Shown in pieces: positions 17,290 to 52,089 of a stretch of 64,000 nucleotides of DNA. The notes beneath the pieces were generated by a model. It was not told where the DNA came from. It was given only the letters and a program-made list of their open reading frames with translations, and searched no databases. Both the position numbers and the translations under genes were made by a program. Positions within the stretch are counted from its first letter, which is position 1; every line of letters begins with the position of its first letter. The DNA is from a virus, in IMG/VR virus record IMGVR_UViG_3300028800_000062, positions 1-64,000 of that record, one strand, 5' to 3'.

Positions 17290-17301
17290 CTATACTAACA
17301 A
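17290..17301 (+). promoter_or_regulatory. Late-promoter-like motif CTATACTAACAA
   Basis: Copy 1 of 5, intergenic. Confidence 0.75.
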
Positions 17302-17308
17302 GGGGCAG

Positions 17309-22882: not shown

Positions 22883-22921
22883 CGAACACCTCGGTAACCC
22901 GCCCTGTTTAGTACCCCATAC

Positions 22922-22933
22922 CTATACTAACAA
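22922..22933 (+). promoter_or_regulatory. Late-promoter-like motif CTATACTAACAA
   Basis: Copy 3 of 5, followed by CCAGT and GTG start. Confidence 0.75.
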
Positions 22934-22938
22934 CCAGT

Positions 22939-30424: not shown

Positions 30425-30432
30425 CGGTGTGT

Positions 30433-30444
30433 CTATACTAACAA
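30433..30444 (+). promoter_or_regulatory. Late-promoter-like motif CTATACTAACAA
   Basis: Copy 4 of 5, heads the protease-capsid operon. Confidence 0.75.
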
Positions 30445-30447
30445 GGG

Positions 30448-34149: not shown

Positions 34150-34365
34150 ATGATGACTCTCCGATCTGCGGTGATTAAAGGCCGTGCCCGCTTTACTCCG
34201 GATGGACTGCGCTGCGCGAATCCCCGGGAAGCGGACGAAGAGCGGTTGTGCAACAAGTTGATCTGCAAGCCAAATGATGCAGGTCAGACGGCCGGCAAGT
34301 TTCGTTGCGATCGCTGCAAGCAGGACATTGAAGTTGCTTTGGTCCTGCCGCGGCGCGTAGCTTAG
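34150..34365 (+). CDS. Mu Com-like zinc-ribbon protein (putative translational regulator)
   Basis: LRC...CNKLICK...KFRCDRCK resembles Com RCxxCNKLL.K...IKCPRC. Confidence 0.6.
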   Translation: MMTLRSAVIKGRARFTPDGLRCANPREADEERLCNKLICKPNDAGQTAGKFRCDRCKQDIEVALVLPRRVA

Positions 34366-34392
34366 AGCAGTATTCAAACTAGAGGCTCAGTG

Positions 34393-34422
34393 GAAGCCCT
34401 AAGTCCTTTTCAAAGGAGTTAG
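34393..34422 (+). promoter_or_regulatory. MCP 5'-UTR motif and SD-sequestering hairpin
   Basis: GAAGCCCTAAGTCC; CTAAgTCCTT-ttca-AAGGAgTTAG. Confidence 0.5.
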
Positions 34423-34430
34423 GTACTTCC

Positions 34431-35792
34431 ATGGGTAAAAAAGCAGTCAAGAAAACGCAAGATTGGGCCGTCCAGCTGGACAAAGATGACCTGATTAACT
34501 TAAACCTGCTCGATACGGTCTTCCGTACCAACGGATTCGATCCGGACGGCGAGCACATGATCATGAAGGACGCGATGGATGTTCCCAACGCCGCGTTCCT
34601 GATTCCGCGTGTGCTAACCCAATTCGTGCAGGAAGGTGTGGAACCCCTGCTAGTCGGTGCCAACCTGTTGCAGCGGATTGAGTACATCCCCGGTATGCAG
34701 ACGGTCTTCCCGGCCATCGATGTGTTGAACGCGCGAGAAGTGGGCGACGGCATGGGCCTCCCCATCTTCAACATCAACATCGGCGGCGGCCAGACTTACG
34801 GCGTGTCCGTCAAACGGCACGGCCTGATGCTGCGCATCGCGGAGCGCTTTGTTGACCAGAGTTCCTACCCGTGGCTCAACTGGTGGGTCAAGCTCGCTGG
34901 TCAAGCCCTGGCGCGCCACAAGGAAGAGTACATCTTCAACTGGATCACCTCTTTGGGCACGTTGGTCTTCGATAACTCCACCGCCGCCCGCACCACCAAC
35001 GGCGCCGGTCTGACCACCAGTGGCCAGGCGCAACCTATCAAGGGCGTCACCACCGGCCGCAACATCATGGGTGTTTTCAACGGCTCCATGACCATGGACG
35101 ACGTCTATGATCTGTACGCCACCACGCTGACTCAGGGCTTCATTCCCGACACCCTGTTAGTGCACCCAATGACCTATCTCATGTGGGTCAAGGACCCGGT
35201 TATGAGAGAATTTGCAATCCAAGCCGGCGGTGGAAACTTCTTCCAGGCCTTTACAGGCAACGCTGCGGCTAAGGCATTCGAAGGGCAGTACAACTTCTTC
35301 GGCCTCGGCCAGGGTCTTGGACAAACCGGTAAGTTCGAAAACGGTACGCAGCTCGGCACCGGGCAGACCGGGACCGCACAGGGACTGCCGCAAAACCAGA
35401 CCTCCGCTCCCACGCTGCTCAACTATTTGGGCCTCAACTTCACCATCCTGGTGTCGCCGTTTGTGCGCTTCGACCCGCTCGGCCGCAATACGGACATCAT
35501 GCTGTTTGACCGCCGCAACCTGGGCGCCCTGATCGTCGACGAAGATCCGCACGTCAACTCATTCAACGATCCGCACTACAACCTCCGCAACATCGGTGTG
35601 GAGGAGACGTACGGCTTCGGCATTTTGAATGAAGGACAGGCCATCACCGTAGCCAAGAACGTGGCCATCCGCCCGAACGAGTTTGTCCTGCCGGCCCGCG
35701 CCGTGATGAATATCAGCGAAGCAGGCAGCACGTTCCAACAGCTCAGCACCATCAACCAGTTCGGTACCAATCCGACCTCGGTATTGTCGTAA
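34431..35792 (+). CDS. Major capsid protein (HK97 fold)
   Basis: FLIPRVL, EVGDG, KRHG, ALARHKEE, PDTLLVHP..Y, E.YGFGILNEG; followed by a terminator. Confidence 0.92.
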   Translation: MGKKAVKKTQDWAVQLDKDDLINLNLLDTVFRTNGFDPDGEHMIMKDAMDVPNAAFLIPRVLTQFVQEGVEPLLVGANLLQRIEYIPGMQTVFPAIDVLNAREVGDGMGLPIFNINIGGGQTYGVSVKRHGLMLRIAERFVDQSSYPWLNWWVKLAGQALARHKEEYIFNWITSLGTLVFDNSTAARTTNGAGLTTSGQAQPIKGVTTGRNIMGVFNGSMTMDDVYDLYATTLTQGFIPDTLLVHPMTYLMWVKDPVMREFAIQAGGGNFFQAFTGNAAAKAFEGQYNFFGLGQGLGQTGKFENGTQLGTGQTGTAQGLPQNQTSAPTLLNYLGLNFTILVSPFVRFDPLGRNTDIMLFDRRNLGALIVDEDPHVNSFNDPHYNLRNIGVEETYGFGILNEGQAITVAKNVAIRPNEFVLPARAVMNISEAGSTFQQLSTINQFGTNPTSVLS

Positions 35793-35800
35793 TCCTACCA

Positions 35801-35842
35801 CGGAGGCGGCGGTTTAGCGACTGCCGCCTCCGGTTCACTTTT
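35801..35842 (+). terminator. Intrinsic terminator after MCP
   Basis: CGGAGGCGGCGGT/ACTGCCGCCTCCG stem followed by TTCACTTTT. Confidence 0.75.
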
Positions 35843-35853
35843 CGAATATCCAT

Positions 35854-36363
35854 ATGGCGAAGATCATTGAGTTTCCCCATCCCGCGGCGCCTGATTATAA
35901 CGGCCGCGTGGTCATGCTCGACCGTGCCAAGGCTAATCGCTTTCAGTGCCGTGGCTTGAATTTAGGCATGCGCAACCAGATGGCCGTCGTGCCGTCCGAC
36001 GCCTCTATGCCCATGATCCGGAAAGCCATCGAGGATGGCATCCTGATCGATCTCACGGAACACCCGGAGATCTGGGAACAGGCTAAAGCCAAAGAGTTGG
36101 CCGTCGACGAAAGCGATGTAGGCAAGAAGTCTTTCACTGCTACCCGCCAGTTCTTCCGGGATCTAGGTATTGATCCAGATCCTGAAGCCTCCGGCGATGA
36201 GATGGTCTGCTACTGCACGGCGGACGCCGATGAACAAAAGCGGATCGAACAAGCCATACCTAAGGCGCTGCAACCGGCGGTAGCCGGCCAGCCCGTCCAA
36301 CTACCCTCAGGTCTGTTTGTGCCACCGGGAATGGACAATCCGGATAAATACCTGCTGCGATGA
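35854..36363 (+). CDS. Hypothetical protein
   Basis: ORF after MCP. Confidence 0.7.
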   Translation: MAKIIEFPHPAAPDYNGRVVMLDRAKANRFQCRGLNLGMRNQMAVVPSDASMPMIRKAIEDGILIDLTEHPEIWEQAKAKELAVDESDVGKKSFTATRQFFRDLGIDPDPEASGDEMVCYCTADADEQKRIEQAIPKALQPAVAGQPVQLPSGLFVPPGMDNPDKYLLR

Positions 36364-37274
36364 GTGCCCCTCTCATTCAATCCACAGCGCCGGCGCCCGG
36401 CGAAACGGATGTGGTGCTCGGCCGCGCCATCATCATCCTGTTTGACCAACCCGTCAATCCTCAGTCCCTGAGCAGCGCTACGTTTTCTCTGCAGGGCCCT
36501 GGACAAACCGCTATTGTGGCCTCCGACGGCAGCATCATCTCGGACGTCACTGCGCCTACCGGGCGCGAATACATCACCGGAACCTTCACCTTCCCCGCCC
36601 CCGGACCTACGGATACTTTCCTCCAGAACCAGCAACTGATCTTCACTCCAGCGGCCACCCTGCGAGCCGGAGTCATTTACACGGTCCTGCTGGTGGGTGC
36701 GACCTCCGTCCTGGCGACCACTTACATCAAGAACCCGGCCGGCGAGGCCATGGCGGAAAGTTACAAGTTCACTTTCACTACCGGCACCATTAATGAGAGC
36801 GTCACTCCGCCTACGTCGCCGGTTGCTCAACTCAATCCCTGGGAACTTCCGGTTCTCGATCCATCCCAGATTCAAGTGTCTCCTAAGGCTGCGATCGGCA
36901 ACAACCTGAGTACGGTCACACTGACCTTCCCCGCCCCCATCGATCCGAATTCCTTCAGCCCCAGCGATCTACTGGTCGCACTCGAGCCGCTGCTGGGCGA
37001 TCCATCCATTATTGTCGATCCTGCAAGCGCTTCTATCAACATTGCCGGGAACACCATGACAATTACGATCAGTACGCCTGTGAATCCCCCAGTGAACACA
37101 TCCACTGGTCGGACTCCGGTATCGATCTACGGTATTCAGCCACCCACCACCGGCGACTGGCTGCAGGGAGATTCGGTTGTCAACACCATTCCTGTATCCG
37201 GCGGCAATATCGGCTGGATCTGCGTAGCCGGAGGTAACCCGGGCACTTGGGAACCTTACGGCATCATAGGGTGA
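36360..37274 (+). CDS. Ig-like (SbsA/Big_5-type) virion protein
   Basis: STAPAPGETDV...I.ILFDQPVNP...LIFTPAATL..G.IYTV...FTFTTG. Confidence 0.75.
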   Translation: MSAPLIQSTAPAPGETDVVLGRAIIILFDQPVNPQSLSSATFSLQGPGQTAIVASDGSIISDVTAPTGREYITGTFTFPAPGPTDTFLQNQQLIFTPAATLRAGVIYTVLLVGATSVLATTYIKNPAGEAMAESYKFTFTTGTINESVTPPTSPVAQLNPWELPVLDPSQIQVSPKAAIGNNLSTVTLTFPAPIDPNSFSPSDLLVALEPLLGDPSIIVDPASASINIAGNTMTITISTPVNPPVNTSTGRTPVSIYGIQPPTTGDWLQGDSVVNTIPVSGGNIGWICVAGGNPGTWEPYGIIG

Positions 37275-37279
37275 CTTTC

Positions 37280-40200
37280 ATGCGAATCTCCTTGGCCGCT
37301 TTAGTACTGATGCTCGCGAGTCTTCCCGGTCAAGCCCAGGTTCCCGCGGGCGGAGCTCTTACAGGCAACTTCCCTCGGCCGCACCTGGCCCCAGTGCAGA
37401 CGGATGTGCTTACTTTCCAGGGCAACCTGACATTTACCGGAAGCCTGGATGCCTCCGCGAGTCTGAATACCAAGCCAATCCAGATCGGCTCGGTGTTGCC
37501 GCCTACACCTTGCAGTCCCTGGTCCTGGTTTATTCTGACCACCGGCGTGCCAGGCCAGAACTTGTACGAATGCACTCTTAGCGGCACATGGCTCGAAGTA
37601 CTAGGTATCGGGGGTGGCAATGGTAATGTTCCGTTCGGCGGAACTGCTGCGCAGGTGCTGCGCGGCGACCTTACCTGGTTAACTCTAAACAGCGATGCCG
37701 TTCCGGAAGGAACGACAAACCTGTATTTCAGCCAGGCGCGCGCCATTGCCGCGTTATCCGGTTTGTATCAGGCTCCCATCTTAGGAGCTCCATCTACCTG
37801 GCCTACTTTGGCGACCGTCAGTTCCACGGGAAGTTACAACGACCTCTTGAACAAGCCGACGATCCCCGCCGGCCAGGTCAACGCCGACTGGAATGCAGTA
37901 TCAGGCCTGGCGGCAATTGCAAACAAGCCTACGGTTCCCGGTAACACTTCGCAGCTTCCGGAGAGCGGCAATCTTTACTTCACCAATGCCCGCGCGGTCG
38001 CAGCCATGAGTGGGCTCTATCAGACGCCTATCTCCAATGCGCCAGGTGTCTGGCCAAGTTTCGCCGCCGTGGCCATAAGCGGCGCATATTCCAGTCTGTC
38101 CGGACTGCCCACCATCCCGGCCGCACAGATCAATGCCGATTGGAATGCCAGTTCCGGCCTGTCTCAGATCCTCAACAAACCGACGATTCCCACTACCACC
38201 AGCCAGATCAGTGAAGGGACGAACCAATACTTCACTCCAGCCCGTGTTGTTTCGGCGATGGCCGGCTTGTATCAATCGCCTATCTCCGGTGCTCCAGGGA
38301 CCTGGCCTGGTTTCGCGGCCGTCGCCACAAGCGGAAGCTACGTGGACTTAAGCAATAAGCCCACAATCCCCGCAGCTCAGGTAAACAGCGATTGGAGCGC
38401 AGTCAGCGGGCTCGCGCAGATCCTGAATAAGCCGACGATCCCGACGAACACTTCACAGATCACCGAGAATGGCAACCTTTACTTCACCCCAGCGCGCGTA
38501 CTGTCTGCGATGTCTGGACTGTACCAGGCGCCCATTACCGGCGCTCCCGGGACGTGGCCAGGCTTCGCCGCGGTGGCAACGTCTGGCAGTTACGCCGACT
38601 TGTCGAACAAACCAACGCTGGTAACTCTCGGCGGATTCGCCAACCCAATGTCCGCGGCCGGCGACTTCATCGTAGGAGGCGCCGGAGGCGTACCGCAAAG
38701 ACTGGCCGCTCCGGCCAACGGTACCTACTGTCCGAACTGGTCTACCGGGGTAGTCACTTGGATCGCCTGCCCGGGAAGCGGCGGCGGAATATCTTCGATC
38801 ACAATGACCGTTCCCTCCGGATTTGGTATCGCCGGCTCGCCGCTGACTGCAAATGGCACGCTGGCCATTTCCTTGGCCTCTCAGTCCGGCAGCTATGCAC
38901 TCATAGCGCCGACCGCAGGTGGTGTTCCTACCTGGCGCGCACTCGTACCCGCAGATATACCGATGCTGAACCAGTCTACTTCTGGAAACGCGGCCACCGT
39001 CACCAACGGCCTATATTCCAACGGAACTTACAACGACCCGTTGTGGCTGACGCTGACCTGGGCCGGCGGAAGGATCACGGGCATCCCGTCCTTCGCAGCT
39101 GTGGCCACGACTGGCGCATATTCGAGCCTATCCGGTTTGCCTACGATCCCAGCCGCCCAGGTCAACTCTGACTGGAACGCAATTTCCGGACTGGCTCAGA
39201 TCCTGAATAAGCCGACGATCCCATCCAATACGTCACAGATCACCGAAAGCGGCAATCTATACTTCACCAATGCCCGCGTACTGACGGCCATGTCCGGCTT
39301 GTACCAAGCCCCGATCTCTGGAGCTCCCGGCACCTGGCCTAGCTTTGCGGCCGTGGCCACATCCGGTAGTTATGCGGATCTCAGCAGCAAACCTACCTTG
39401 ATATCGCTGGGCGGCTTCGCAGATCCGATGACCACAATCGGTGACTTCATCGTGGCCGGCGCGTCCGGCGTACCGCAACGCTTGGCGGCTCCTACAAATG
39501 GAACGTATTGTCCGAACTGGGCGACCGGCGTGGTGACCTGGACTTCCTGTCCAGCAGGCATTTCTTCAATTACGTTTACCGTTCCTTCAGGATTCAGCGC
39601 GTCCGGGTCTCCCCTGACCGCGAATGGCACACTGGGCTTTTCCCTTGCCAGCCAGGGCAACAGCTATGTGCTGATAGCTCCTACGGCGGGGGGTGTCCCT
39701 ACCTGGCGTGCTCTGGCACTCACCGACATTCCCACCACGCTGACGGGCATCACCTTGGATTCGGTAACGCCTACGACATTCGGTTACTTGGATGCCACCT
39801 CCAGCATTCAGACCCAACTGAACGGCAAACAGAACACCATCAGCGGCGCCCCGGGAACGTGGCCTACTCTCGGAACCGCCGCCGCACAGAACACGGGAAC
39901 ATCCGGAGCAACCCTTGGGTTACTGAACGGAACGTTGACCTTCTCGGGCGCGAATAATTACGGTACGCCGGCCAGTATCAACTTAGCGAATGCGACCTTC
40001 CCCACGCTCAACCAATCGACCAGCGGCAACGCCGCCACGGCTACCAGCATTGCCGCCGGGGCAGTGGGGGCTATCCCATATCAGTCCGCAGCAAGCACCA
40101 CGGTATTCCTGCCCGGCAATGTCGCCGCAACCGATCAGGTAATGGTGAGCCACGGCACCGGCGCCGCCGCGCAAGCCCCTACGCTCAGTAACGCTCCCGC

Positions 40201-40828
40201 CCTTTCTATTACCAGTATGACTGGCACGCTCCCCGCAGCACTCGAACCGGCCCATACAGGCGATATGCATAATACCGCGGGCAGCCTGGTGACTGTAGTA
40301 GCAGCCATTAACGGCGTCACGGTGTCGGGTAGCGCGACGGCCGGCAAGATTCTCAACGCCACAAGCGGCATCGCCGCGGCCTGGACGGCAACGCAGACGC
40401 TCGGGGCATCCGGCACTCTCGGTTCGCTGACGATGGGGAACGCCACCAGCGGTTTACTTACCTTGCAGCCTGTGACGGGGGCTCTCGGCACGGTCACGAT
40501 GTCGATCCCAGTGCCTGTTGGCGGATCTACCCTGACGCAGACCATTGCTAACGTCCAATTGGCGCTGCCTACCGTGGCGGTGGCCGGCAACGCGTGCAGC
40601 GCGAGTGCTACGACCGCTACGGCAACAGGTGCCGCCACTACTGATACCACAGCAATCACTTATGCCTCTGATCCAACCGCCGTGACTGGATACGGCGCAG
40701 GAACGAACGGTGGCATCACGATCCGGCCTTGGATCACAGCAAACACCATCAACGTGAAGTTGTGCAATGAGACGGGGACGAGTATTACACCAGGGCCTCT
40801 GACCATCAACCTGAGGGTCACACGATGA
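37280..40828 (+). CDS. Large repeat-rich fibre/adhesin with signal peptide
   Basis: MRISLAALVLMLASLPGQA/Q; five ~85-aa repeats (NLYFT.AR...GLYQ.PI.GAP..WP...SY.DL.NKPTIP). Confidence 0.75.
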   Translation: MRISLAALVLMLASLPGQAQVPAGGALTGNFPRPHLAPVQTDVLTFQGNLTFTGSLDASASLNTKPIQIGSVLPPTPCSPWSWFILTTGVPGQNLYECTLSGTWLEVLGIGGGNGNVPFGGTAAQVLRGDLTWLTLNSDAVPEGTTNLYFSQARAIAALSGLYQAPILGAPSTWPTLATVSSTGSYNDLLNKPTIPAGQVNADWNAVSGLAAIANKPTVPGNTSQLPESGNLYFTNARAVAAMSGLYQTPISNAPGVWPSFAAVAISGAYSSLSGLPTIPAAQINADWNASSGLSQILNKPTIPTTTSQISEGTNQYFTPARVVSAMAGLYQSPISGAPGTWPGFAAVATSGSYVDLSNKPTIPAAQVNSDWSAVSGLAQILNKPTIPTNTSQITENGNLYFTPARVLSAMSGLYQAPITGAPGTWPGFAAVATSGSYADLSNKPTLVTLGGFANPMSAAGDFIVGGAGGVPQRLAAPANGTYCPNWSTGVVTWIACPGSGGGISSITMTVPSGFGIAGSPLTANGTLAISLASQSGSYALIAPTAGGVPTWRALVPADIPMLNQSTSGNAATVTNGLYSNGTYNDPLWLTLTWAGGRITGIPSFAAVATTGAYSSLSGLPTIPAAQVNSDWNAISGLAQILNKPTIPSNTSQITESGNLYFTNARVLTAMSGLYQAPISGAPGTWPSFAAVATSGSYADLSSKPTLISLGGFADPMTTIGDFIVAGASGVPQRLAAPTNGTYCPNWATGVVTWTSCPAGISSITFTVPSGFSASGSPLTANGTLGFSLASQGNSYVLIAPTAGGVPTWRALALTDIPTTLTGITLDSVTPTTFGYLDATSSIQTQLNGKQNTISGAPGTWPTLGTAAAQNTGTSGATLGLLNGTLTFSGANNYGTPASINLANATFPTLNQSTSGNAATATSIAAGAVGAIPYQSAASTTVFLPGNVAATDQVMVSHGTGAAAQAPTLSNAPALSITSMTGTLPAALEPAHTGDMHNTAGSLVTVVAAINGVTVSGSATAGKILNATSGIAAAWTATQTLGASGTLGSLTMGNATSGLLTLQPVTGALGTVTMSIPVPVGGSTLTQTIANVQLALPTVAVAGNACSASATTATATGAATTDTTAITYASDPTAVTGYGAGTNGGITIRPWITANTINVKLCNETGTSITPGPLTINLRVTR

Positions 40829-42819
40829 CGCGGATGATTCTACTGTTCGCGTTGGCTGTGGGTCTGCAGGCTCAGCAGCTTCCCTTTGGAAGCTTCACAC
40901 ATGTCAGCTTGACGGGAGGGGGCGGCGGAAATAGCGCATCCTTGCAATACGCCTACCAGACTGCACAGTCGGGAGGCACTGCCTCATCTCCCGCCATGGC
41001 GTTCCCTGTTACTACGGGGCATACCTTCGTTGGGTTCGTGTGGTTCTACAACAACGTTACACTCTCAACCATCACTACTTCTAAGGGTGACACCTGCACA
41101 ACGGTTCCATCGAGTGCCATTAACACCAGCGTTTTCACCCAGGAGGTTTTCTATTGCCTGACTGTCGCCGGCGGTTCCGGGTACACGGCCACGGCCACGT
41201 TCAGTGGCTCAAGTAGTTACAGCGCCATCTACCTGGCGGAGTACGGTGGAATCACGGGTGTAGACGTTGCGGCGCACAACAATGGGCCCAATGGGGCAAC
41301 GATGGCCCTGGCTTCGGCACTGACGCCTACTGTTGCCGGCGATCTGGTATTTGCTGCAGGCATCATATACGGGAGTGGGAACAGCTATACCCCGGCTGCC
41401 AACTTTGCGTTGCATATGCCAACTTTTGGTGGCAGCGGGGGCGCCTCGGATTTCACAGGTATTGAAGATTCAATGCAGGGCTCAGCCTCTCCGGTAACGG
41501 CGTTATTCACTACGGATGGGACCGGAGAATGGGGAGCGTCGGTAGTCGCCTTTAAGACCCAAACCTGGACCAACGCCATCCCGTATATCAGCAGTTCTGT
41601 AGGGTACCTAAACTCGAATGCGCTCACATCTCATACCACGGGTACGGTCAACAACACAGGGGCGTCGGCCATGCTGGTGTTCATCGGGACGCACAACCCC
41701 TGGAACAGTCTAGCTGTATCGATCTCTGGGGTAACTGACACAGCCGGTAATACGTGGACGCCTCTTGCAGGTCCAACACTTTTCACCGGGGCAAGTTGGC
41801 CTCTCTTAGGTGCTATCTACTATTGCACCAGCCCGAAGACCGCGACCAACGATGCGGTGACCGTCTCTCTGACCAACCCAGCCCCTATGGTTTTGGATGT
41901 CTATGCCCTCACTGGAAGCTCCGGCCTCCCCGTGACCTCCACCATTAACAGCCCAGCAGCAGGAACCGGCTCTACATCTCCAACGGCCGGTCCTATAACC
42001 GTCCCCGCCAACACCCTACTGATAGCGTGGGAGAAGAACGAGACAGCCGTAACATCAGCGACCACCGGGGCCGGGTTCGAGAAACTGTGGGGAGATCAAA
42101 GCGGTTACTTGACGCCCGAGTTTGCTTTCACCGCGACCGGAGGGTCCTTTAGTTCGGCATTCAACTTGTCGGGTTCTACAGGGTGGCAATCAGCCATCGT
42201 TGGATTGTCAGCAAGTACTACGCTTCCCACCTTTGACAATTCGGTAGCAGCGACAGGTGTCAATGCCACCACCATATCGGCCACCTTCACGGTCGCGGCG
42301 AATGCTACTGTCTTGTGTGCAATCGGCAACAATGTCCACGAGGTGCCGTCTGGGGTGTCCGATGGGACCAACGCTTATATCCCCACGGATGACGAGAGCT
42401 TATCTGGCAGTGCCGGAACTCTAACCATCTGGATGTACAAGTACACCGGAGCTGGCGGGTCGAAGACCATAACCGCCACGTCCTCTGCCGGGACCACCGG
42501 AGCAGCAATGGCTTGTGAGTCGTGGACAAACCTCACAGGTGGATGGGATCAAACTGCGGATGGTAACTCCGGGGGCGCGGTAGGCCCAACTGGCACGACG
42601 GCACACGCTAACGAAGTCGTATTTACTGCCGCTGCGCAGACGAGTTCAAGCCCATATACCGCGTGCTCTCCTGGAGCGATCCGCGCCACCTCTACTTATG
42701 CCGCAGGGCCAATGACTGTCTCCATCTGCGACTTGGTAGTATCCACTATCGGAACTGAAAGTACCGTCTGGACGGCGGACCATTCAAACGCGGCGTACAT
42801 CCTGGAGACGTTCTTCTAA
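40825..42819 (+). CDS. Secreted-type beta-sandwich repeat protein (fibre/adhesin)
   Basis: MTRMILLFALAVGLQA/Q; three Thr/Ser/Gly-rich beta domains. Confidence 0.7.
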   Translation: MTRMILLFALAVGLQAQQLPFGSFTHVSLTGGGGGNSASLQYAYQTAQSGGTASSPAMAFPVTTGHTFVGFVWFYNNVTLSTITTSKGDTCTTVPSSAINTSVFTQEVFYCLTVAGGSGYTATATFSGSSSYSAIYLAEYGGITGVDVAAHNNGPNGATMALASALTPTVAGDLVFAAGIIYGSGNSYTPAANFALHMPTFGGSGGASDFTGIEDSMQGSASPVTALFTTDGTGEWGASVVAFKTQTWTNAIPYISSSVGYLNSNALTSHTTGTVNNTGASAMLVFIGTHNPWNSLAVSISGVTDTAGNTWTPLAGPTLFTGASWPLLGAIYYCTSPKTATNDAVTVSLTNPAPMVLDVYALTGSSGLPVTSTINSPAAGTGSTSPTAGPITVPANTLLIAWEKNETAVTSATTGAGFEKLWGDQSGYLTPEFAFTATGGSFSSAFNLSGSTGWQSAIVGLSASTTLPTFDNSVAATGVNATTISATFTVAANATVLCAIGNNVHEVPSGVSDGTNAYIPTDDESLSGSAGTLTIWMYKYTGAGGSKTITATSSAGTTGAAMACESWTNLTGGWDQTADGNSGGAVGPTGTTAHANEVVFTAAAQTSSSPYTACSPGAIRATSTYAAGPMTVSICDLVVSTIGTESTVWTADHSNAAYILETFF

Positions 42820-42865
42820 AGCTCATGCAACATAGTTTAGTTACCGAACAGGAAGAGGACACTTA

Positions 42866-43717: not shown

Positions 43718-43734
43718 GTTTTGTGGAGTAGAGT

Positions 43735-46380
43735 ATGGCTGCGATCTTCGACGCCTCGTCGTATTTCACCAAACGCCAGTCGGACTTGCGCTACATGCAG
43801 GGTCCGCTGACGTCGCAGGAGATCACCGCGGCTTTGGGCGCCGGCAGCAACGGAAATCCATCGAACTATATTCCCGGCGGTATGATTGCTCCCGCTACGA
43901 TTCAAGCGTCCTCCATGGCTTCCGGCGCCATGGCTTTAGCCTTGTCTCTGGGAGGCCTTTCGGCCGTAACCATCATTCCGCCCTCCACCGCTAATACACT
44001 GCTGGCCTCCAGCATTTCGCTCGCAGGCAACCCCTACGTCCCGGGATCGGTAGTCTACTGGACTCCCACCGACGGCACGACGCTGGGCACCACCTCCAGT
44101 CTTTATACCGCGACCCAGAATAAGACTGGTGCGTCCATCACCATCAACTTCCCGTTCACCACTTCGACGCCTACGATCGTGCCAGTCAACGGCTTCTACT
44201 GGTCGAATACCGTTCCGGCCGCCAACATTACCGGCCTGCTGACCACGGCGCAGCTCGGCGCCAATATCGTGGGCACGGCGCAACTGGCGCAGAACATCAA
44301 ACCGAACACAGTGGTCAGTTCCCTGCCGACCATCACTGGCAATCCGGCGAACTATAACCCAGGTGACACCATCACCTTAATGGTTTCCGGCCAGGCACCG
44401 GTACTCTATCAGCTGGACAACAACAGTCAGTGGCGCATCATGATCACCCAAGGGCAGACTGCCACGCTGTCGACGACGGCCCTGACTGCCAGTTGGCTTA
44501 CCGCCGGCGCGATCTCCGCAGGTGCTATCAAAGCCAGCCAGATCGATGTCACGAGCTTACTGGTCACCGGCAATGCCGCCCTCACCAATGTTCTCAGTTT
44601 GACCATCACGGCCAATGTCATCACGGCGGCGTCCCTGGCCGTCAATTCCGTTACAGCCAACAGTATCAGCGCGAATGCTGTGGTTGCCGGCAAGATCGCC
44701 GCCAACGCCGTTACTGCGGGGACCATTGCAGCCGGCGCAGTATCCACTCAGAATCTGATCGTCGGGAACTGGTCTTGTCTGATGGAGGATCCTACCTTCG
44801 AGATCGAAGGGACTACACCCGGCAGCTATCCCAATTTAGGTTTCGTCTCGTATCCGGCGGGCACATATCCTTGGTGGGAAGACGGCCTAGGTCTGAAGGT
44901 GTGGGCAGGGTGGGGCCGTGGTGGGACTTACGGTGCACTCAAAGCGCATGGATCGAGTTTCAGCGGATGGCCCACCACCAGCTCGGCAAACATGCGGAAC
45001 CGGATGGTCTTCGCGGTCAAGGACGGTGACCAACTATATATCGAAGGCTGGGCCCTGCAAAATACCAACACCAATGCCTCGGCTGTCGCGCAAATGGACA
45101 TTTCATTCTTCACTGATCAAGCCAGCGCGCAACGTGCCACCTCCACTGACGGAGCCGTCACAAACCTGGTGTCGAACACTATAGCTCTCGAATGGGGAGT
45201 GTCTGGAACCAATACTGTCGTGCTGGTAGGAACAGGCACCTCACAAGCCGCCGGAGTCTGGTGCTTTGCTAGCAATGTGATCACGGTTCCCACCAATGCG
45301 CGCTGGGCCTTCGTGTCGCTGAGCGTGCAGGGGCAAACTTCCGGCGCCTGGGCAATGGACGACCTCTTTGTCATCTCGGCTACACCTTCGGCCTACATCA
45401 CTTCACTCAACGCCGCGGTGATTAACACGGGAACTTTGGCTGCCGACCGGATTGGTGCAGGCACATTAAACTGCACGAACCTATATGTCTCCAACATCAA
45501 CGGCCACGCCGGTCCATTTAACCTCACCGGGGGCATTCCAGGTTCAACCATTACCAGTCAGAGCATTACCAATACACAGATCGCCAACGCAACCATCACC
45601 AGCGCTCAGATCGCGAATGCAACGATCACCAACGCACAGATCGCTAACGCGACCATCACCAGTGCTCAGATCGCCAACGCAGCAATCACCTCGGCCAACA
45701 TCGCGAGCCTTAACGCGTCAGTCATCAACAGCGGAACTCTCACTGTAGGCGGGAATGTTTCTGCCAATGCGCCTGGATATATCCTAGCGTTGGACATCAG
45801 CAATAATCCGGTTGCCTGGATGGGAGTGTACGGTGGTTACTCAGGTTTGTGGGCTCAGAACGCCTATATAGGAGGAGCCAGTGCTGCGGTTGCCCCTATT
45901 GTAGGTTCCGCGGCAGGCGTGCATATTACAGGGGCAAGCATAGTCAACACCAGCTCGGATTCACACGGTACCTATACGGTGAATATTGATTCTGTTAATG
46001 GGATCAAACTAACCAACACTTCAGACGGCTCCTACAACCAGCAACAAAGCTGGGGTATGATGGGTTACACAATACATGGTCCTTCTGATCAGTATTCGCC
46101 GGCCTTTACTCCTTGCAACTATCTCTTAAGTGGAGCCACTCTGCAGCTACAAGTTTCTGATGCTTCTGCGGTTGCATCATTATCTATCTACCAAACTCAA
46201 GTTGCACGACATCCTGTGGAGTCACGCGGAACGTTATCACTAAGTTCCTCTACAACTGGTAATACCCTGCTTTTGAACCCAGATTGGATTGCGGTCAATG
46301 GGTCCAATGCGTTCACCGGGTCATTCTTGGACCAGGGCGGAACATCACACAGTGTAGTAAACGGTTTGATTATGAATTGA
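43735..46380 (+). CDS. Tail fibre protein
   Basis: Beta-helix-like AVTAGTIAAG and ITSAQIANAT repeats; central carbohydrate-binding-like domain. Confidence 0.75.
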   Translation: MAAIFDASSYFTKRQSDLRYMQGPLTSQEITAALGAGSNGNPSNYIPGGMIAPATIQASSMASGAMALALSLGGLSAVTIIPPSTANTLLASSISLAGNPYVPGSVVYWTPTDGTTLGTTSSLYTATQNKTGASITINFPFTTSTPTIVPVNGFYWSNTVPAANITGLLTTAQLGANIVGTAQLAQNIKPNTVVSSLPTITGNPANYNPGDTITLMVSGQAPVLYQLDNNSQWRIMITQGQTATLSTTALTASWLTAGAISAGAIKASQIDVTSLLVTGNAALTNVLSLTITANVITAASLAVNSVTANSISANAVVAGKIAANAVTAGTIAAGAVSTQNLIVGNWSCLMEDPTFEIEGTTPGSYPNLGFVSYPAGTYPWWEDGLGLKVWAGWGRGGTYGALKAHGSSFSGWPTTSSANMRNRMVFAVKDGDQLYIEGWALQNTNTNASAVAQMDISFFTDQASAQRATSTDGAVTNLVSNTIALEWGVSGTNTVVLVGTGTSQAAGVWCFASNVITVPTNARWAFVSLSVQGQTSGAWAMDDLFVISATPSAYITSLNAAVINTGTLAADRIGAGTLNCTNLYVSNINGHAGPFNLTGGIPGSTITSQSITNTQIANATITSAQIANATITNAQIANATITSAQIANAAITSANIASLNASVINSGTLTVGGNVSANAPGYILALDISNNPVAWMGVYGGYSGLWAQNAYIGGASAAVAPIVGSAAGVHITGASIVNTSSDSHGTYTVNIDSVNGIKLTNTSDGSYNQQQSWGMMGYTIHGPSDQYSPAFTPCNYLLSGATLQLQVSDASAVASLSIYQTQVARHPVESRGTLSLSSSTTGNTLLLNPDWIAVNGSNAFTGSFLDQGGTSHSVVNGLIMN
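45565..45710 (+). repeat. Tandem 30-bp coding repeats (IT[SN]AQIANA[TA])
   Basis: About five consecutive decapeptide units. Confidence 0.8.
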
Positions 46381-46408
46381 CCTAGAACAGCCGAAAGGAA
46401 ATCTCATC

Positions 46409-46750
46409 ATGAACAACAACGAGAAGATCAACGAACCTACGGATCTACGATATGAATTGACGGAGGAACAGAACCAGGTCTATGCCGTCATGACCAACAA
46501 GGTCGTCAAGGCCAATTCCGAGATGGAACTGGCCCAGCGCGTATTTCTGATGCAGAAACAGGCGTTCGATAGCATCAATGAGGATTGCAACCTGTTCCTC
46601 AGCTATGTGATCCAAAGTCAGAAACTGCCCAAAGCAGATGGCGGTTACTCGCCGCAACAGTTTGCGCCCGGCCGGTTTGCGTTAACCGGCAAAGCAATTG
46701 TGGCCGCTCCCGCAGTTCCGCCGTCGGCTGACGATACTAACAAAGAATAG
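46409..46750 (+). CDS. Small coiled-coil protein (possible fibre chaperone)
   Basis: Follows the fibre gene; AAGGA RBS. Confidence 0.55.
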   Translation: MNNNEKINEPTDLRYELTEEQNQVYAVMTNKVVKANSEMELAQRVFLMQKQAFDSINEDCNLFLSYVIQSQKLPKADGGYSPQQFAPGRFALTGKAIVAAPAVPPSADDTNKE

Positions 46751-47344
46751 ATGCTGCCGCTTGGCACAACCCGCTCGATCGACTTCCGCCTGGCGGATGC
46801 CAGCGAGAATCCCGTTACCGGCCGTACGTTGGTACCGTGGAGCACCACGCCGCCGGCCAACGTGGTGATGATCCAGGCGTTTCTGCGCAACAACCAGGCC
46901 TGTACCGACACCCTTTCCCTACAAGATTACGGCAACGGGCTGTATACCGTTTCCTATCTGCCGACCGCCGCCGGCCACGATCTGCTGGTGCTTTACGACC
47001 AGGCTCTGGATATACGGGTCATGGACAGTGAAGACATCATGCCGACCGACTTTGCCATCGGCGGCGGTACTGCAGGCATCCTACTCAACCAGGATTACGG
47101 CGGCACAGATGCACTGCGGGCCACCGGGCTGAGCGATGATCCGACGACTTATCAATTGCTGGTGTTCCTGGCCTCCGACTGGCTGGGCAACCGGCGGGAC
47201 AATGCCAATGCGGTAGGAATTACCGGCCTCGATAGCAACGGGCGCTGGCTCAGCGGCATCTTCGTGGGCGCCGGCGTTTATATCATCGTCGTGCGCAAGC
47301 CGACGCAGACATACGTGATCGCTTACAGCTTGAGCGTGGAGTAA
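46751..47344 (+). CDS. Ig-like virion protein
   Basis: DYGNGLYTVSYLPT filamin/Ig-like motif. Confidence 0.6.
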   Translation: MLPLGTTRSIDFRLADASENPVTGRTLVPWSTTPPANVVMIQAFLRNNQACTDTLSLQDYGNGLYTVSYLPTAAGHDLLVLYDQALDIRVMDSEDIMPTDFAIGGGTAGILLNQDYGGTDALRATGLSDDPTTYQLLVFLASDWLGNRRDNANAVGITGLDSNGRWLSGIFVGAGVYIIVVRKPTQTYVIAYSLSVE

Positions 47345-47348
47345 ATCG

Positions 47349-48098
47349 ATGCAGAACACTGTGGTCCATATCACATTGCCTAAGGGACTGGCCTTAACCA
47401 ACGGAGCTACCCTGGCGGACGATACCGACTTCATGGTCCTGGGAACCGTGAGCCCATGGTATTCCTCAGTGGACCAGGTCCGCCTCGAGGGCGGCATCTA
47501 TCTCACCAAGATCAGCGATTTGACCATTGCCTGCCAGATTTGGCAAGCGTCCCTGGATATCGATGTGATGTCGGCGGTGCCTCCGCCGGCGCCCGTCGAC
47601 GGAACTTCGACTTCCGACTACGGTTACCGGATCTACAACAATTACACGCATGCGCGCAACCAGTGGGTATCGCAACGCTCCGCGCTGGACATCATCACCA
47701 AGGCGTTCGACATTTCCGGGGTGCGAGGTTCGAAGACTCTGGGCAACTTCTCGGTAATGCGTATGGCGTTCGGCCGCGACGAAGGTCTGCCACGCGTCAT
47801 GAGCGAAATGAAGGAAGAGATCAATAAGTGGCGCATCGTGCTGCAATCCGGGGGCACGGTAGCCTACGGCGGACATGCCCGGCCCGCCATGGCGTCCAAG
47901 AGCTACTTCGACCGCGCGGACCAGATCCCCGGGCGGCTGTGGATGACTACCGGTATGGGGGCAGCACATAAGACTCCGGCAGGCCTCGGCTCCGCCGGCA
48001 AACCGGTGAAGTTCGGGTCTCCCACTTTCATTGATTTCCGGGTGGGACGCCAGTTCGGCAATTACATCAACCTATTCCCGACCGTAATCTGGTCTTAA
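47349..48098 (+). CDS. Putative head-tail adaptor (neck)
   Basis: Position; YSSVDQVR N-terminus and SKTLGNFSV hairpin typical of adaptors. Confidence 0.6.
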   Translation: MQNTVVHITLPKGLALTNGATLADDTDFMVLGTVSPWYSSVDQVRLEGGIYLTKISDLTIACQIWQASLDIDVMSAVPPPAPVDGTSTSDYGYRIYNNYTHARNQWVSQRSALDIITKAFDISGVRGSKTLGNFSVMRMAFGRDEGLPRVMSEMKEEINKWRIVLQSGGTVAYGGHARPAMASKSYFDRADQIPGRLWMTTGMGAAHKTPAGLGSAGKPVKFGSPTFIDFRVGRQFGNYINLFPTVIWS

Positions 48099-48101
48099 CT
48101 T

Positions 48102-48647
48102 ATGAACTTCTACCCAGAACCTCAAACCTTCGATTTGCGAGATGAGTTTCACGATTCTCTATTTGGAACTCTAATCGAGCCGGGCATCGGGCAGGCCGTG
48201 CTGCTGCGCCGGTTGCGGGATCAGGTGTGCGTCTGCTGGGACGGCATTACCGGGTCGGCCGATGCCGCCTGCCGGTACTGTGGCGGGGAGGGTTATTTGT
48301 GGGAGGAAGATCTCAAGATCTGCTACATGGCGCGCAACTTCGGAGGCGTGCAGAATCCCTCTAACGTCATCTCCAATCAACAGAATACGGCGAAATGGGG
48401 GATCAGCGACGAGAACCGCGCCATTGCCTATTTCGAGTACTCTGTCTTTCCCAACTACGAACGTTATCTCATTCCACAGCATCCGTCTTACGACAAGCTC
48501 TACGAGTTGAAGGTGGACGATAACGGAAACCTGGTACAGCCTTGGGTGCGTACGGCGAAGTGGAGTATGAAGTCGGTCACCCCACACCGCGGCGACCGGG
48601 GCGCGATCGCCATGTTTGAGTGCGGCCTGGAGAAAGTCACCCTGTAG
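48102..48647 (+). CDS. Putative head-closure protein
   Basis: C.CW....S.D..C.YC.GEGY zinc motif; position after adaptor. Confidence 0.6.
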   Translation: MNFYPEPQTFDLRDEFHDSLFGTLIEPGIGQAVLLRRLRDQVCVCWDGITGSADAACRYCGGEGYLWEEDLKICYMARNFGGVQNPSNVISNQQNTAKWGISDENRAIAYFEYSVFPNYERYLIPQHPSYDKLYELKVDDNGNLVQPWVRTAKWSMKSVTPHRGDRGAIAMFECGLEKVTL

Positions 48648-48659
48648 CGGAAAGCCTTC

Positions 48660-48671
48660 CTATACTAGCAA
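48660..48671 (+). promoter_or_regulatory. Late-promoter-like motif CTATACTAGCAA
   Basis: Copy 5 of 5, heads the tail operon; in-frame GTG at 48677. Confidence 0.75.
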
Positions 48672-48676
48672 AGGGT

Positions 48677-49342
48677 GTGACAGGTGAAATATTGATTGGG
48701 GGTACGGCTGCTTTTGCGGTGCCGCCCAAGATGTCCAGTCGAGCGCCCCTGGACCACTTATCACTGTATCAGGCATTTGTCGACTGTTTCAGCCTGGCAG
48801 CCCAGACCTTGGAGTGGCCTTCCCAGAACCAGCCCAAGTTGGTGGAGGAGTATCCGGCGCAGCGCGAGGGTGAGTTTGACACGAGTTTCGACATTATCCT
48901 GATGAGCCTGGCGGGCAGCCATGTATCGTCCACCAGCAACAGACGAGACCAGCGGCCCAAGGGAATTGAGGAAGTTTCCCGCATCCCCTACCCGGGGTTA
49001 ACGGGATACCTGCAGGTGCGCAGCAAGTGGGAGGAGGACGTTCAGGTACGTTTCGACGTGCTGTCCAAGTCCAACCGCAAAGCCAATGAGTTGGCTATGT
49101 GGTGGCATCGCACCCTGGTGGTGTACGCGCAAAGCCTGAAGTTCTTTATGGCGCGCGGCGTGAACGATTTCCGGTTCGCTGAACGGCTGGCGGACCAGAC
49201 AACAAAGGAATATGGCCAGACATTGTACTGCAGGCCGCTGCTTTATACGTTGCGGCTGGAACTGGACATCCTGACCAAGTGCAAGACCTTGGACCAGATT
49301 AATATGCGTCTGGGATCCTCCAAGATTGAAATCGACGGTTAG
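48677..49342 (+). CDS. Putative tail completion/terminator protein
   Basis: Immediately before the sheath gene; start 48677 or 48731. Confidence 0.55.
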   Translation: MTGEILIGGTAAFAVPPKMSSRAPLDHLSLYQAFVDCFSLAAQTLEWPSQNQPKLVEEYPAQREGEFDTSFDIILMSLAGSHVSSTSNRRDQRPKGIEEVSRIPYPGLTGYLQVRSKWEEDVQVRFDVLSKSNRKANELAMWWHRTLVVYAQSLKFFMARGVNDFRFAERLADQTTKEYGQTLYCRPLLYTLRLELDILTKCKTLDQINMRLGSSKIEIDG

Positions 49343-49366
49343 AAGCCGCACTCGAATGGGAGATCG

Positions 49367-51268
49367 GTGGAAATGAGTTACAACTACCTACCTGGAATGC
49401 AGGTTATCACCAACGACGGCGGCTTGTACAAGAGAACAAACCCCGTTACAAAGAGTGTTCTGGTGTTCGGTACTTCCGGCCAGGGCATCGCCGACCAGGC
49501 TTATCAGGTTCTCGACCAGAACCAGGCAGCCTTGGAATACGGATTTGCCGGCACTTTGATCCGAGGCATGTCGGAGTCTGCGGCCGGCGGCAGCGACAAT
49601 CTGTACCTGTACCGTATCGGTACCGCGCCCGCCGTTCTTAAAGGTGTCGGAACCTCCACGGCCACAACCGCCAATCTGGGCCTGTCCCTGTCCTTCGGCG
49701 ACCGGGACGTGGACACCGCTACCAAGTACACCATGTATTATGCGGCCGGCATCCTCTATGTGTGGAACAACGGCCAGTTGGTGTATGCCAATGACACCGG
49801 CGTGCAGGTAGTCGATACCGGCGACGTCACGGTGACCATGTTGGACGTCACCATGCCTACCGGCGGCGCCGCCATCGGTACGGCTAAGACTTTGGCCGGT
49901 TCAGTGGCCATCGGTCAGGCGCCTACGGCGGCTGTAACGGATACGCATGACACGGCTCCCGTCTACACTGACGCCATCACAGGGCTGAACCTGACTACCC
50001 GTCAGTTGTATATCGCCCTCGAGAAAGCCATGGACATCATGGCTGGCTTCGTGGTGCAACAGGTCTATATTCCCAATACCGTGTTGGACGCGCCGAACGT
50101 GGCGTTCTACGTGTCTTCGGATCCTACCACCACGCAGCACAATCCGGCGACCAATCCCAATGCGCTCGACTGGCTCAAGACCACTACCGACGCGGTGGGT
50201 AACGAGACCTACCGGTGGGCCAGTGAACTGGTGGATTCCAACGGGCAGATTGTCACTGCGCACACCGCTTGGACTTCCGGCAGCGCCCGCCAGGCGGACG
50301 GCTTCTATGAGGTCAACTTCGGCTATCAGCTGGCCCGGTATTGTTCTCAGGCCAGCGAGACGCAGCAAGGTAACGGCGTATGCGTCGGCTTCATCGGCAT
50401 GAACGGACCGGCCGCGAGTTCCTCTGGTCTGCTGAACTTTTCCACAGTCAACGTGCGCTCCTGGCTGGGCGCCCTGCCGACTTACGATCCTAATAGCGGC
50501 ACAGTGCTCGCTTCTGGCAAAGGCGTACTGGGCAACCCGTATATGGCAGGCTGCGGTTCGGCGCAATTGAACCTGCTGTGCATCGACAAGGCCACCGGCC
50601 GCAGCAAGGGTTTCTTTGAGAATTTGGCTGAAGAGTATGACGGCGGCGCTTCGCTCGATGAGAACCAAATGCCCATCGATATCGGGGCCTACCTGGTGGT
50701 TTGCGGAGACTGGGCCAGCTTGACCAATTCTTACGGCTCAGGCTACGTGGGCAACATCGCCGGCCTGGTGTGCGGATTTGTAGCGCAGCTCGATGAGAAG
50801 GAAAGCACCACCAACAAGCCGGTGAAGGCGGTAGCTCAGCTGTACCATCCGACTCTGCCGCAACTAGACGCTGCTGCCGAAGTGGGCATCCATCTTCTGC
50901 GGTATCGCAGCACCGTGGACCTGCCCCGACTGGATCACGGGCAAACGGCGGCCACTTTGAATTCGGACTTCTGCGAAATCGTGCGGGTGCGGATCAAAGG
51001 TAAGGTCATCGTTGAGGTTTTCGACGCTGCAGATCCTTTCATTGGCAGCTCTTCGACCGATGGTATGCAACTGTTGAGTCTCCAAACGGCGCTCAACAGC
51101 CGCCTCAGCGTGTTACGCAAAGCGGGTTATATCGGCGCCAACTTCAGCATCTCCATCCAAGCCACGCAGGCACAGATGACTGCTGGACAATGCGACCTGT
51201 ATCTCACGTATTACAGCCCCGACGAAGTCAAGAAGATTACGGTTCACGTCGGCCTGTCACGGCAGTAA
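49367..51268 (+). CDS. Tail sheath protein
   Basis: N-terminal LPGMQV, VLVFGTS..G; C-terminal VRIK...DPFIG...E.KKITV.V sheath pattern. Confidence 0.9.
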   Translation: MEMSYNYLPGMQVITNDGGLYKRTNPVTKSVLVFGTSGQGIADQAYQVLDQNQAALEYGFAGTLIRGMSESAAGGSDNLYLYRIGTAPAVLKGVGTSTATTANLGLSLSFGDRDVDTATKYTMYYAAGILYVWNNGQLVYANDTGVQVVDTGDVTVTMLDVTMPTGGAAIGTAKTLAGSVAIGQAPTAAVTDTHDTAPVYTDAITGLNLTTRQLYIALEKAMDIMAGFVVQQVYIPNTVLDAPNVAFYVSSDPTTTQHNPATNPNALDWLKTTTDAVGNETYRWASELVDSNGQIVTAHTAWTSGSARQADGFYEVNFGYQLARYCSQASETQQGNGVCVGFIGMNGPAASSSGLLNFSTVNVRSWLGALPTYDPNSGTVLASGKGVLGNPYMAGCGSAQLNLLCIDKATGRSKGFFENLAEEYDGGASLDENQMPIDIGAYLVVCGDWASLTNSYGSGYVGNIAGLVCGFVAQLDEKESTTNKPVKAVAQLYHPTLPQLDAAAEVGIHLLRYRSTVDLPRLDHGQTAATLNSDFCEIVRVRIKGKVIVEVFDAADPFIGSSSTDGMQLLSLQTALNSRLSVLRKAGYIGANFSISIQATQAQMTAGQCDLYLTYYSPDEVKKITVHVGLSRQ

Positions 51269-51357
51269 GTACGGTCTTTCCGGTCCGGGTGGAGGCAGCA
51301 ATCGTGCCCGCCCGGACTGGTCCTGCCTAGCGTAATCTTGGCACAACTTTCATTCGC

Positions 51358-51381
51358 GAGGCCCTTAGGTCCGTTAAGGAG
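51358..51381 (+). promoter_or_regulatory. Tube 5'-UTR motif and SD-sequestering hairpin
   Basis: GAGGCCCTTAGGTCC; CCTTA...TAAGG pairs with the SD. Confidence 0.5.
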
Positions 51382-51387
51382 ACTCAA

Positions 51388-52089
51388 ATGTCAACGACTC
51401 CAGGTCTAACGGATGCCATCGCGAACAGCACCAACAACACATTTTCCGGCAGCGACATCCGTGCATACATAGGCCCTGTCCCGTTCGGACAGATGCAGGC
51501 GATTTCTTATTCCATCAGCCGGGAAAAAGCTCCCGTCTATACCATGGGCAGCCCGGATCCTCGCAGCTTCTCGCGCAACAAGCGCGGTATCGCAGGCTCG
51601 CTGGTATGGATCCTGTTTGACCGGCACGCTCTGCTGGCTCTGGCCGCACAGCTTAGCGGTACCTTCCTCGCTAACCGCGATGACGTGAATCCGACATTCC
51701 TGTCGCCGATCGCGCCGAGCGGAGGTTATGTTTCGCCGCAGGTGTTCAATACCACGCTGGTGCGCAACGACGGTACTTTGCCGGCCGCAGTAGGCAGCGC
51801 CGCCGCCGCGCAACCCCTTCAGGATATGTCCCTGGCCGCTAACTTCAAAGTGGTGTCTGCACCCTGGTATTCGGATCAGATCCTGCCGTTTGATGTCACC
51901 ATGTCCGGCGTGAATGAGTATGGCGCCGCGATGGGGATGAAGATCTTCGGTGTCGAAATCCTGAATGAAGGCTACGGGGTGTCCGTGGATGACACGGTGA
52001 GTGAGATGCAGGCTACCTTCGTGGCCCGTTCCATCGAGCCGTGGCAGGCAGTGGCTACCAACCTGAACAGCTCATCCTGTCTGGTCTAA
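51388..52089 (+). CDS. Tail tube protein
   Basis: Follows sheath; TFSGSDI, REKAPVYTMG...RGIAGSL, DQILPFDV, FVAR. Confidence 0.8.
   Translation: MSTTPGLTDAIANSTNNTFSGSDIRAYIGPVPFGQMQAISYSISREKAPVYTMGSPDPRSFSRNKRGIAGSLVWILFDRHALLALAAQLSGTFLANRDDVNPTFLSPIAPSGGYVSPQVFNTTLVRNDGTLPAAVGSAAAAQPLQDMSLAANFKVVSAPWYSDQILPFDVTMSGVNEYGAAMGMKIFGVEILNEGYGVSVDDTVSEMQATFVARSIEPWQAVATNLNSSSCLV

Follow-up and report, generated by a model that had tools for sequence, protein, structure and literature searches.

The 64,000-nucleotide (nt) stretch analyzed here, referred to below as the window, corresponds to the first 64 kb of a single virus record of 146,742 bp (IMG/VR record IMGVR_UViG_3300028800_000062). The plus strand of the window carries a myovirus structural block, in which an open reading frame (ORF) of 71 amino acids (aa) encoding a small zinc-ribbon protein, present as a single copy in the record, lies directly upstream of the gene encoding the major capsid protein (MCP). 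The present analysis deals with this small gene, the leader of the capsid gene which follows it, and the possibility that the product of the former may control the translation of the latter. The features concerned are the following:

34150-34365, plus strand: zinc-ribbon gene (71-aa ORF)
34382-34399, plus strand: candidate protein-binding hairpin, called hairpin 1 (GA-GGCU-C, spacer AGUG, GA-AGCC-C; 34384-34387 pairs with 34395-34398)
34385-34436, plus strand: predicted translation-inhibitory helix (GCUCA/UGGGU, UGGAAG/CUUCCA, CCUAA/UUAGG, UCCUU/AAGGA)
34431-35792, plus strand: MCP gene, the proposed regulated target (PHROG major head protein)

Related loci are designated below by L-numbers and other phages carrying the zinc-ribbon gene by G-numbers; the sequences concerned come from environmental contigs, which measure up to 215 kb. 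The zinc-ribbon gene is located immediately 5' of the MCP gene in about 50 loci, the MCPs of which are 55-88% identical to that of the window. The MCP also matches the capsid proteins of jumbo phages such as Bacillus phage 0305phi8-36 and Acinetobacter phage ME3, at an identity of only about 27%. In the window, 65 nt separate the stop codon of the zinc-ribbon gene from the AUG of the MCP gene. The zinc-ribbon ORF starts 8 nt 3' of the preceding stop codon and has no clear Shine-Dalgarno (SD) sequence, which would suit a low-copy regulator. In L078, L090, L098, and L140, the ORF runs through the RNA elements of the leader and overlaps the MCP start as ATGA. The zinc-ribbon ORFs of these four loci (712-1023 in L078, 1034-1504 in L090, 1217-1504 in L098, and ending at 949 in L140) show an extra C-terminal tail of 30-40 aa, which is encoded by the leader elements themselves.

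As indicated in the initial annotation of this DNA, the ORF at 34150-34365 encodes LRC...CNKLICK...FRCDRCK directly before the MCP gene. Four cysteine residues, C22, C34, C53, and C56 (C22-x11-C34 ... C53-x2-C56), are invariant in the family, and the CNKL...CxRC signature is conserved; C39, which the annotation had included in the cysteine set, is not invariant. The protein is basic, and the AlphaFold2 model based on 63 sequences shows a confident small all-beta domain consisting of six strands (predicted local distance difference test score 95.2). No informative structural relative was found by searching the PDB sequences, by running Foldseek against the PDB or in a wide VIA-align search (best Z 2.9), and the window protein obtained no PHROG or NCBIfam assignment. 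The best match with PF10122 among six close relatives had an E value of 0.026, and the window protein itself did not match the curated Pfam model. When the family profile was compared with that of the Com protein of phage Mu using hhalign, probabilities of 94.9% and 94.1% were obtained over 28-29 columns spanning the CNKL...CxRC region. A profile search of 1.84 billion representative proteins yielded only 63 relatives, the weaker of which are canonical CxxC Com-type proteins; seven of the 63 match PF10122 (best E value 3.1e-9). Since the profile matches that of Mu Com and reaches members of PF10122, the 71-aa protein appears, from its sequence, to be a divergent branch of the Com-type zinc ribbons, with a first knuckle lengthened by about nine residues and a conserved added N-terminal beta segment of about 20 aa.

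Another family of small zinc-binding phage proteins was also considered. The P2 Ogr and P4 Delta proteins (PF04606) are zinc-finger late transcription activators of about 70 aa which control late structural genes. Although the 71-aa protein resembles them in being a small zinc-binding phage protein, no member of the family matches PF04606 at E 10 or E 0.01, and the cysteine spacing differs from the C-x2-C-x22-C-x4-C pattern. In addition, the conserved element in the present case covaries as an RNA helix including G-U pairs and not as a DNA site.

The capsid leader is predicted to form a long helix burying both the SD sequence AAGGAG (34413-34418) and the AUG (34431-34433). The minimum free energy (MFE) obtained with RNAfold is -26.2 kcal/mol (z-score -3.4), none of the 200 shuffled sequences being as good; the z-score amounts to -5.2 in the interval from -45 to +12, and the unpaired probability around the AUG is 0.02. 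The motif GAAGCCCTAAGTCC reported in the initial annotation is present at 34393-34406, and the pairing with the SD sequence described there (34399-34422) is real and much stronger than described there. The motif itself is not simply an anti-SD element, however: it really consists of the 3' half of hairpin 1 (GAAGCCC) plus the 5' arm of the inhibitory helix. Since the stems did not line up with each other when the leaders were aligned with MAFFT, the base pairs were counted with anchored scripts, using slid and shuffled controls. The long helix has been kept in the subclade to which the window belongs, where the z-scores of the window, L001, and L063 range from -3.3 to -3.6. The inner stems differ among these three leaders (TCC/GGA, CTTTCACC/GGTGGAAG, and a repaired C-G pair), and the outer stem retains G-U pairs through C-to-U changes. 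In L078, L090, L098, and L140, the equivalent helix is a stem of 7-9 base pairs (bp) ending at the AUG, and compensatory outer stems were observed (GAAGAAGCC/GGCUUCUUC in L090 versus GGAGAAACC/GGUUUCUCC in L078). No Rfam family was detected in the window, the capsid leader giving just a sub-threshold match with a CRISPR repeat, and no sigma-70-like promoter was found in the capsid or tail tube leaders upon scanning for promoters and terminators. A search among sequencing runs listed no RNA run containing this sequence.

Hairpin 1 is located just 5' of the inhibitory helix and overlaps its 5' arm. Because the same bases form the 3' half of the hairpin and the 5' arm of the helix, the two structures are mutually exclusive. 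The general form of hairpin 1 is GAG-RY-UC, a spacer of 2-10 nt, and GAR-RY-CC. All four pairs were found in register in all 15 of the related leaders, as compared with 1.3-2.8 pairs in the slid partner controls, and five stem types occur, including GGCU/AGCC, GGUU/AACC, and GAUU/AAUC, with C-G to U-A and G-C to A-U swaps. In the extended zinc-ribbon ORFs, these swaps alter the amino acids encoded (L to F, A to T), pointing to a constraint at the RNA level. Of the 19 sites in the genome which match the hairpin 1 pattern, that of the capsid leader is alone in having a start codon within 60 nt (a probability of roughly 0.004 for that leader). Forcing hairpin 1 to form costs 11.4 kcal/mol; the outer helix at the AUG is then lost and the AUG-proximal arm is freed.

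In phage Mu, Com binds to a short hairpin beside the translation-inhibition structure of mom (PMC6483171). The core selected by systematic evolution of ligands by exponential enrichment (SELEX) is GAG(N)2CC, mostly in the form GAGNNCC(N)2-3GAGNNCC, and the GA dinucleotides have been footprinted; the designed substrate RNA I has two halves separated by a spacer, each made up of GA, a 4-nt arm, and C, the second arm being complementary to the first, while a single-site substrate reads CC(N)2-3GAG (PMC6483171). The native Mu site is GAAUGCC-UGC-GAGCAUC and lies within the 3' part of com. The system described here resembles this one in several respects. Both proteins are small, basic, four-cysteine zinc ribbons with CNKL(L/I)xK...CxRC. 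The regulator gene immediately precedes its presumed target in both cases, and Mu com overlaps mom, as the zinc-ribbon ORF overlaps the MCP start by ATGA in some of the relatives. Both leaders have a hairpin of the form GA-arm-C...GA-arm-C beside a helix hiding the start signals, the structures in the window being predicted ones. The window's GA-GGCU-C-AGUG-GA-AGCC-C is in exactly the same register as RNA I, and its flanking GAs match those footprinted. The two halves, GAGGCUC and GAAGCCC, depart from the SELEX core at U (position 6 of the first half) and at A (position 3 of the second half), and these two residues form the closing pair of hairpin 1, which is U-A, whereas a C-G pair is invariant in the SELEX sequences. 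The presumed target also differs, being the MCP of a myophage of roughly 150-215 kb here and a DNA-modification gene in the case of Mu. No paper linking Com-like proteins with capsid genes was found in the literature searched.

Our preferred reading, which we consider about equally likely to be right or wrong, is that the capsid gene is subject to a translational switch of the Com/mom type. The 71-aa Com-type RNA-binding protein would be expressed at a low level as part of the head operon. The default fold of the capsid leader would be the long helix at 34385-34436, hiding the SD sequence and the start codon, and the alternative fold would be the Com-target-form hairpin at 34382-34399, the 3' half of which is shared with the 5' arm of the helix. 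By binding and stabilizing hairpin 1, the protein may loosen the inhibitory helix, and the translation of the capsid gene would start only after the regulator has accumulated, following the same logic as that of Mu Com acting on the mom mRNA. That the protein binds to this RNA, that it activates translation instead of repressing it, and what purpose the switch serves are inferences on our part.

Several findings weigh against this switch. The first knuckle of the window protein is C-x11-C instead of CxxC, and no Pfam match was obtained with this protein at E 0.1 or E 10. Strong occlusion of the ribosome-binding site (RBS) is confined to the window's subclade; over all the leaders, the RBS accessibility is 0.52 with the zinc-ribbon gene and 0.53 without it (p 0.28). 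Most of the relatives, here called group II, lack the long helix and have instead a hairpin of 4-6 bp with AGGA in the loop and the following GG(G/C) paired. Two lineages have no zinc-ribbon gene between the homolog of the 389-aa protein, encoded upstream of the zinc-ribbon gene in the window, and the MCP (L109/L113/L116 and L104/L105), although these contigs are short and the gene may have been relocated; in L109, L113, and L116, where the MCP starts at about 1470-1492, a gap of 130-190 nt is left and the SD hairpin is retained without the gene in that position. In the window itself, the inner stem pairing the SD sequence persists when hairpin 1 is forced, and hairpin 1 alone would therefore not expose the SD sequence. 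The strict Com core GAGNNCC is not enriched in the 42 non-redundant MCP leaders (7 observed versus 4.7 expected), and the relaxed versions of the core which are enriched were defined post hoc, on related sequences. The comparison between hairpin 1 and the Com target was likewise made after the data had been seen and amounts to a strong lead rather than a test. Lastly, all the sequences compared share descent, so that the pair counts overstate their independence.

Some of these findings would be expected if the leader structures worked without the zinc ribbon, either as sites of mRNA processing or stabilization (an RNase III-type site, for example) or by coupling to upstream translation, and if the protein had some other function, for instance as an accessory to head assembly or to the scaffold, as a minor component of the virion, or in binding DNA. 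The presence of the gene makes no difference to the accessibility, the SD hairpin persists in a lineage lacking the gene at its usual position, and the helix could be opened by ribosomes alone in L078, L090, L098, and L140, where the ORF runs into the MCP start. The classical anti-SD leader hairpins and coupled genes of RNA phages (coat/replicase, coat/lysis) likewise have their RBS in a stable helix, and some of the present relatives end their ORF at ATGA in a comparable way. The window differs from these classical cases in that its ORF stops 65 nt before the AUG and ahead of the helix, and in having a separate covarying hairpin and a dedicated zinc-ribbon gene. Since the window ORF ends about 20 nt before the helix, coupling cannot open it. 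Distant members of the family, which adjoin portal/MuF and prohead protease genes or a tail tube gene without any long leaders, also fit a protein with another role, as does the position of the gene in the window among the genes involved in head morphogenesis (portal, 770-aa protein, 389-aa protein, and MCP). The structural block containing them is organized as follows:

24429-26396, plus strand: terminase large subunit
28349-30424, plus strand: portal
between the portal and the 71-aa ORF, plus strand: 770-aa protein and 389-aa protein
35801-35832, plus strand: strong terminator-like hairpin with a T-run, closing the capsid transcription unit

Against this explanation stand the relationship between the family and the Com-type RNA-binding zinc ribbons, the presence, exactly where the inhibitory helix has its 5' edge, of a covarying hairpin built like the Com target, and the exact Com motifs adjoining two distant members; the lack of a clear SD sequence and the start 8 nt after a stop codon would also suit a low-copy regulator. 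We therefore regard structures acting independently of the protein as unlikely, although far from negligible.

The group II leaders raise the question of the direction of the effect. Their SD hairpin (NCCC-UAGGA-GGGN') has a stem of at least 4 bp in 20 of the 21 leaders, with 12 stem types, as compared with a mean of 10.9 and a maximum of 16 leaders among the shuffles; these leaders also have an upstream GUCC...GGAC hairpin. With its closing C-G pair and a loop ending in GA, the SD hairpin of most of the relatives resembles the single-site Com substrate, and binding to it would cover the SD sequence. The protein might thus bind to the leader and repress or tune the translation of the capsid gene, for instance by clamping the SD hairpin and setting the capsid output relative to that of the scaffold and the portal, or it might act on its own operon. 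A repressor would add little in the window's subclade, where a helix of about -26 kcal/mol already closes the RBS, whereas the MCP is needed in large amounts; Com, the only relative to have been characterized, is an activator (PMC6483171). Repression or tuning seems to us distinctly improbable, and activation of the capsid gene by the opening of the long helix remains the reading we prefer.

The initial annotation had made a broader claim, overlapping with this reading: that a single SD-occluding motif co-regulates the capsid gene, the tail tube gene, and perhaps the sheath gene. The additional features concerned are as follows:

ending at 51268, plus strand: sheath gene
51358-51373, plus strand: small tube-leader hairpin GA-GGCC-C-U-UA-GGUC-C, a doubtful second site, included in the MFE structure and located just 5' of the SD sequence AAGGAG (51375-51380)
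51388-52089, plus strand: tail tube gene, followed by a tube paralog

The sequence elements cited in this connection do exist: GAGGCCCTTAGGTCC is present in the tube leader at 51358-51372, and GAAGCC before the sheath gene at 49342-49347, its first G being the last base of the upstream stop codon. The capsid and tube leaders are no more alike than expected by chance: 3.35% of random genome segments reach their local alignment score of 11, higher scores were obtained with two other gene leaders and equal ones with several more, and GARGCCC occurs 49 times in the 147-kb genome. The pairing proposed with the tube SD sequence (51363-51379) is possible as CCUUA/UAAGG, but it falls outside the MFE structure, and the leader, with a z-score of -0.6, folds no better than shuffled sequences. 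Nor is this pairing kept in the closest relative, L014, the tube of which is 90% identical (leader z-score +0.3). GARGCCC is absent from the tube leaders of the five further zinc-ribbon phages in which these leaders could be read (G001, G004, G005, G006, and G008), where only weak pyrimidine/SD mini-hairpins were found. The sheath leader shares the hexamer only, has a z-score of 0.0 and forms no structure, and the hexamer is regarded here as noise.

A few points speak in favor of the broader claim. The tube hairpin GA-GGCC-C-U-UA-GGUC-C has nearly the form of the Com target and would compete with the CCUUA/UAAGG anti-SD pairing; the tube leader of L014 keeps GAGGCC...GGCCCG and AGGAG despite the insertion of two genes upstream of the tube; and one distant member of the family lies directly before a tail tube gene. 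The tube hairpin fits only a relaxed pattern, however, which matches 174 sites in the genome. A regulon comprising all three genes is thus quite unlikely, and the tail tube gene taken by itself is equally doubtful as a true second target. The tube and sheath leaders most likely lie outside the switch. The translational switch put forward in the initial annotation is plausible for the capsid gene, where the relation to Com, the occluding helix and the covarying hairpin support it, and is not supported for the tube and sheath genes, where the match is at chance level and the fold insignificant.

Some other observations were made on the leaders of this region and on the motif. In L014 (1538-2945), two added genes encoding 150 and 311 aa are located between the sheath and tube genes, where the window has a 119-nt spacer with a hairpin. 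The hairpin at 51289-51331, which immediately follows the sheath stop codon of the window, is GC-rich and has no T-run; it might serve the phage's own polymerase as a terminator or processing site. A third near-match of the motif, at 22142, was rejected, being within an ORF of 68 aa and within chance expectation. This Gly/Ala-rich, membrane-like ORF (21974-22180) has a near-copy of the motif, AAGGCCCTAAGTC, at its end, 35 nt upstream of the next gene (22184).

The more distant members of the family were also examined, although several of their contexts are too short for the downstream gene to be named. Two of them, P0045 (L232) and P0057 (L237), share the expanded first knuckle. The exact bipartite SELEX motif of Com, GAGUUCC-N2/3-GAGAGCC, is present 3' of the zinc-ribbon gene in both L232 (741-756) and L237 (552-568). 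In each case, a strong intrinsic terminator with a U-tract follows, the 5' arm of which starts with the second half of the motif (-34 and -32 kcal/mol; z-scores -3.7 and -3.8, respectively). Against a background of 12 matches in 2.35 Mb of strand, chance would yield about 0.006 occurrences of the exact bipartite motif in the leaders of this kind examined, which total roughly 1.2 kb. As in the window, a putative binding site shares bases with an inhibitory hairpin, and this layout suggests that Com-type proteins may act here by antitermination, a mode not described for Com. In L238, the distant member (2501-2755) lies 1 nt upstream of a tail tube gene of the Phage_tube_2 family, and in L235 (2501-2695) it is located between a portal/MuF fusion and a prohead protease; based on these two contexts, the family tends to precede morphogenesis genes in unrelated types of phages. 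It is conceivable, although we think it rather unlikely, that the Com-type zinc ribbons with an expanded knuckle constitute a widespread class of RNA switches placed before the virion genes which are the most abundantly expressed, in which the protein would bind to a GA-arm-C...GA-arm-C hairpin sharing nucleotides with an inhibitory RNA structure: the opening of a translation-blocking helix in the case of the capsid gene, antitermination by preventing an intrinsic terminator from forming in L232 and L237, and maybe the control of tail tube genes (L238, possibly that of the window).

Independently of the leader structures, the motif CTATACTAACAA (variant CTATACTAGCAA) was observed 10-20 nt before several gene starts, where it would give near-leaderless mRNAs. 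This motif is absent from the capsid and tube leaders of the window. In L080, L087, L088, and L089, it occurs right after the zinc-ribbon stop codon and before the MCP, and for this reason the capsid genes of these loci appear to have a late promoter of their own. Its sites, and one further ORF noted in the window, are listed below:

17282-17308, about 21850, 22883-22938, and 30425-30447 in the window: CTATACTAACAA/CTATACTAGCAA sites
77308-77330 and 93675-93696 (minus strand), genome coordinates: CTATACTAACAA/CTATACTAGCAA sites
10431-13403, minus strand: 990-aa ORF

To our knowledge, proteins dedicated to the activation of translation are seldom encountered in phages, the action of Mu Com on mom being the textbook case. 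If the switch proposed here for the capsid gene is real, the expression of the late structural genes in a clade of large soil and peat phages would involve an additional post-transcriptional checkpoint, which would set the timing or the stoichiometry of capsid production relative to the portal, protease, and scaffold. The hairpin and the helix form a short pair defined to the nucleotide. The terminator-linked sites near the distant members suggest antitermination as a second mode of action, which has so far not been described for Com. If the capsid switch is real, the Com fold would also extend from a single DNA-modification operon to a general RNA-switch module.

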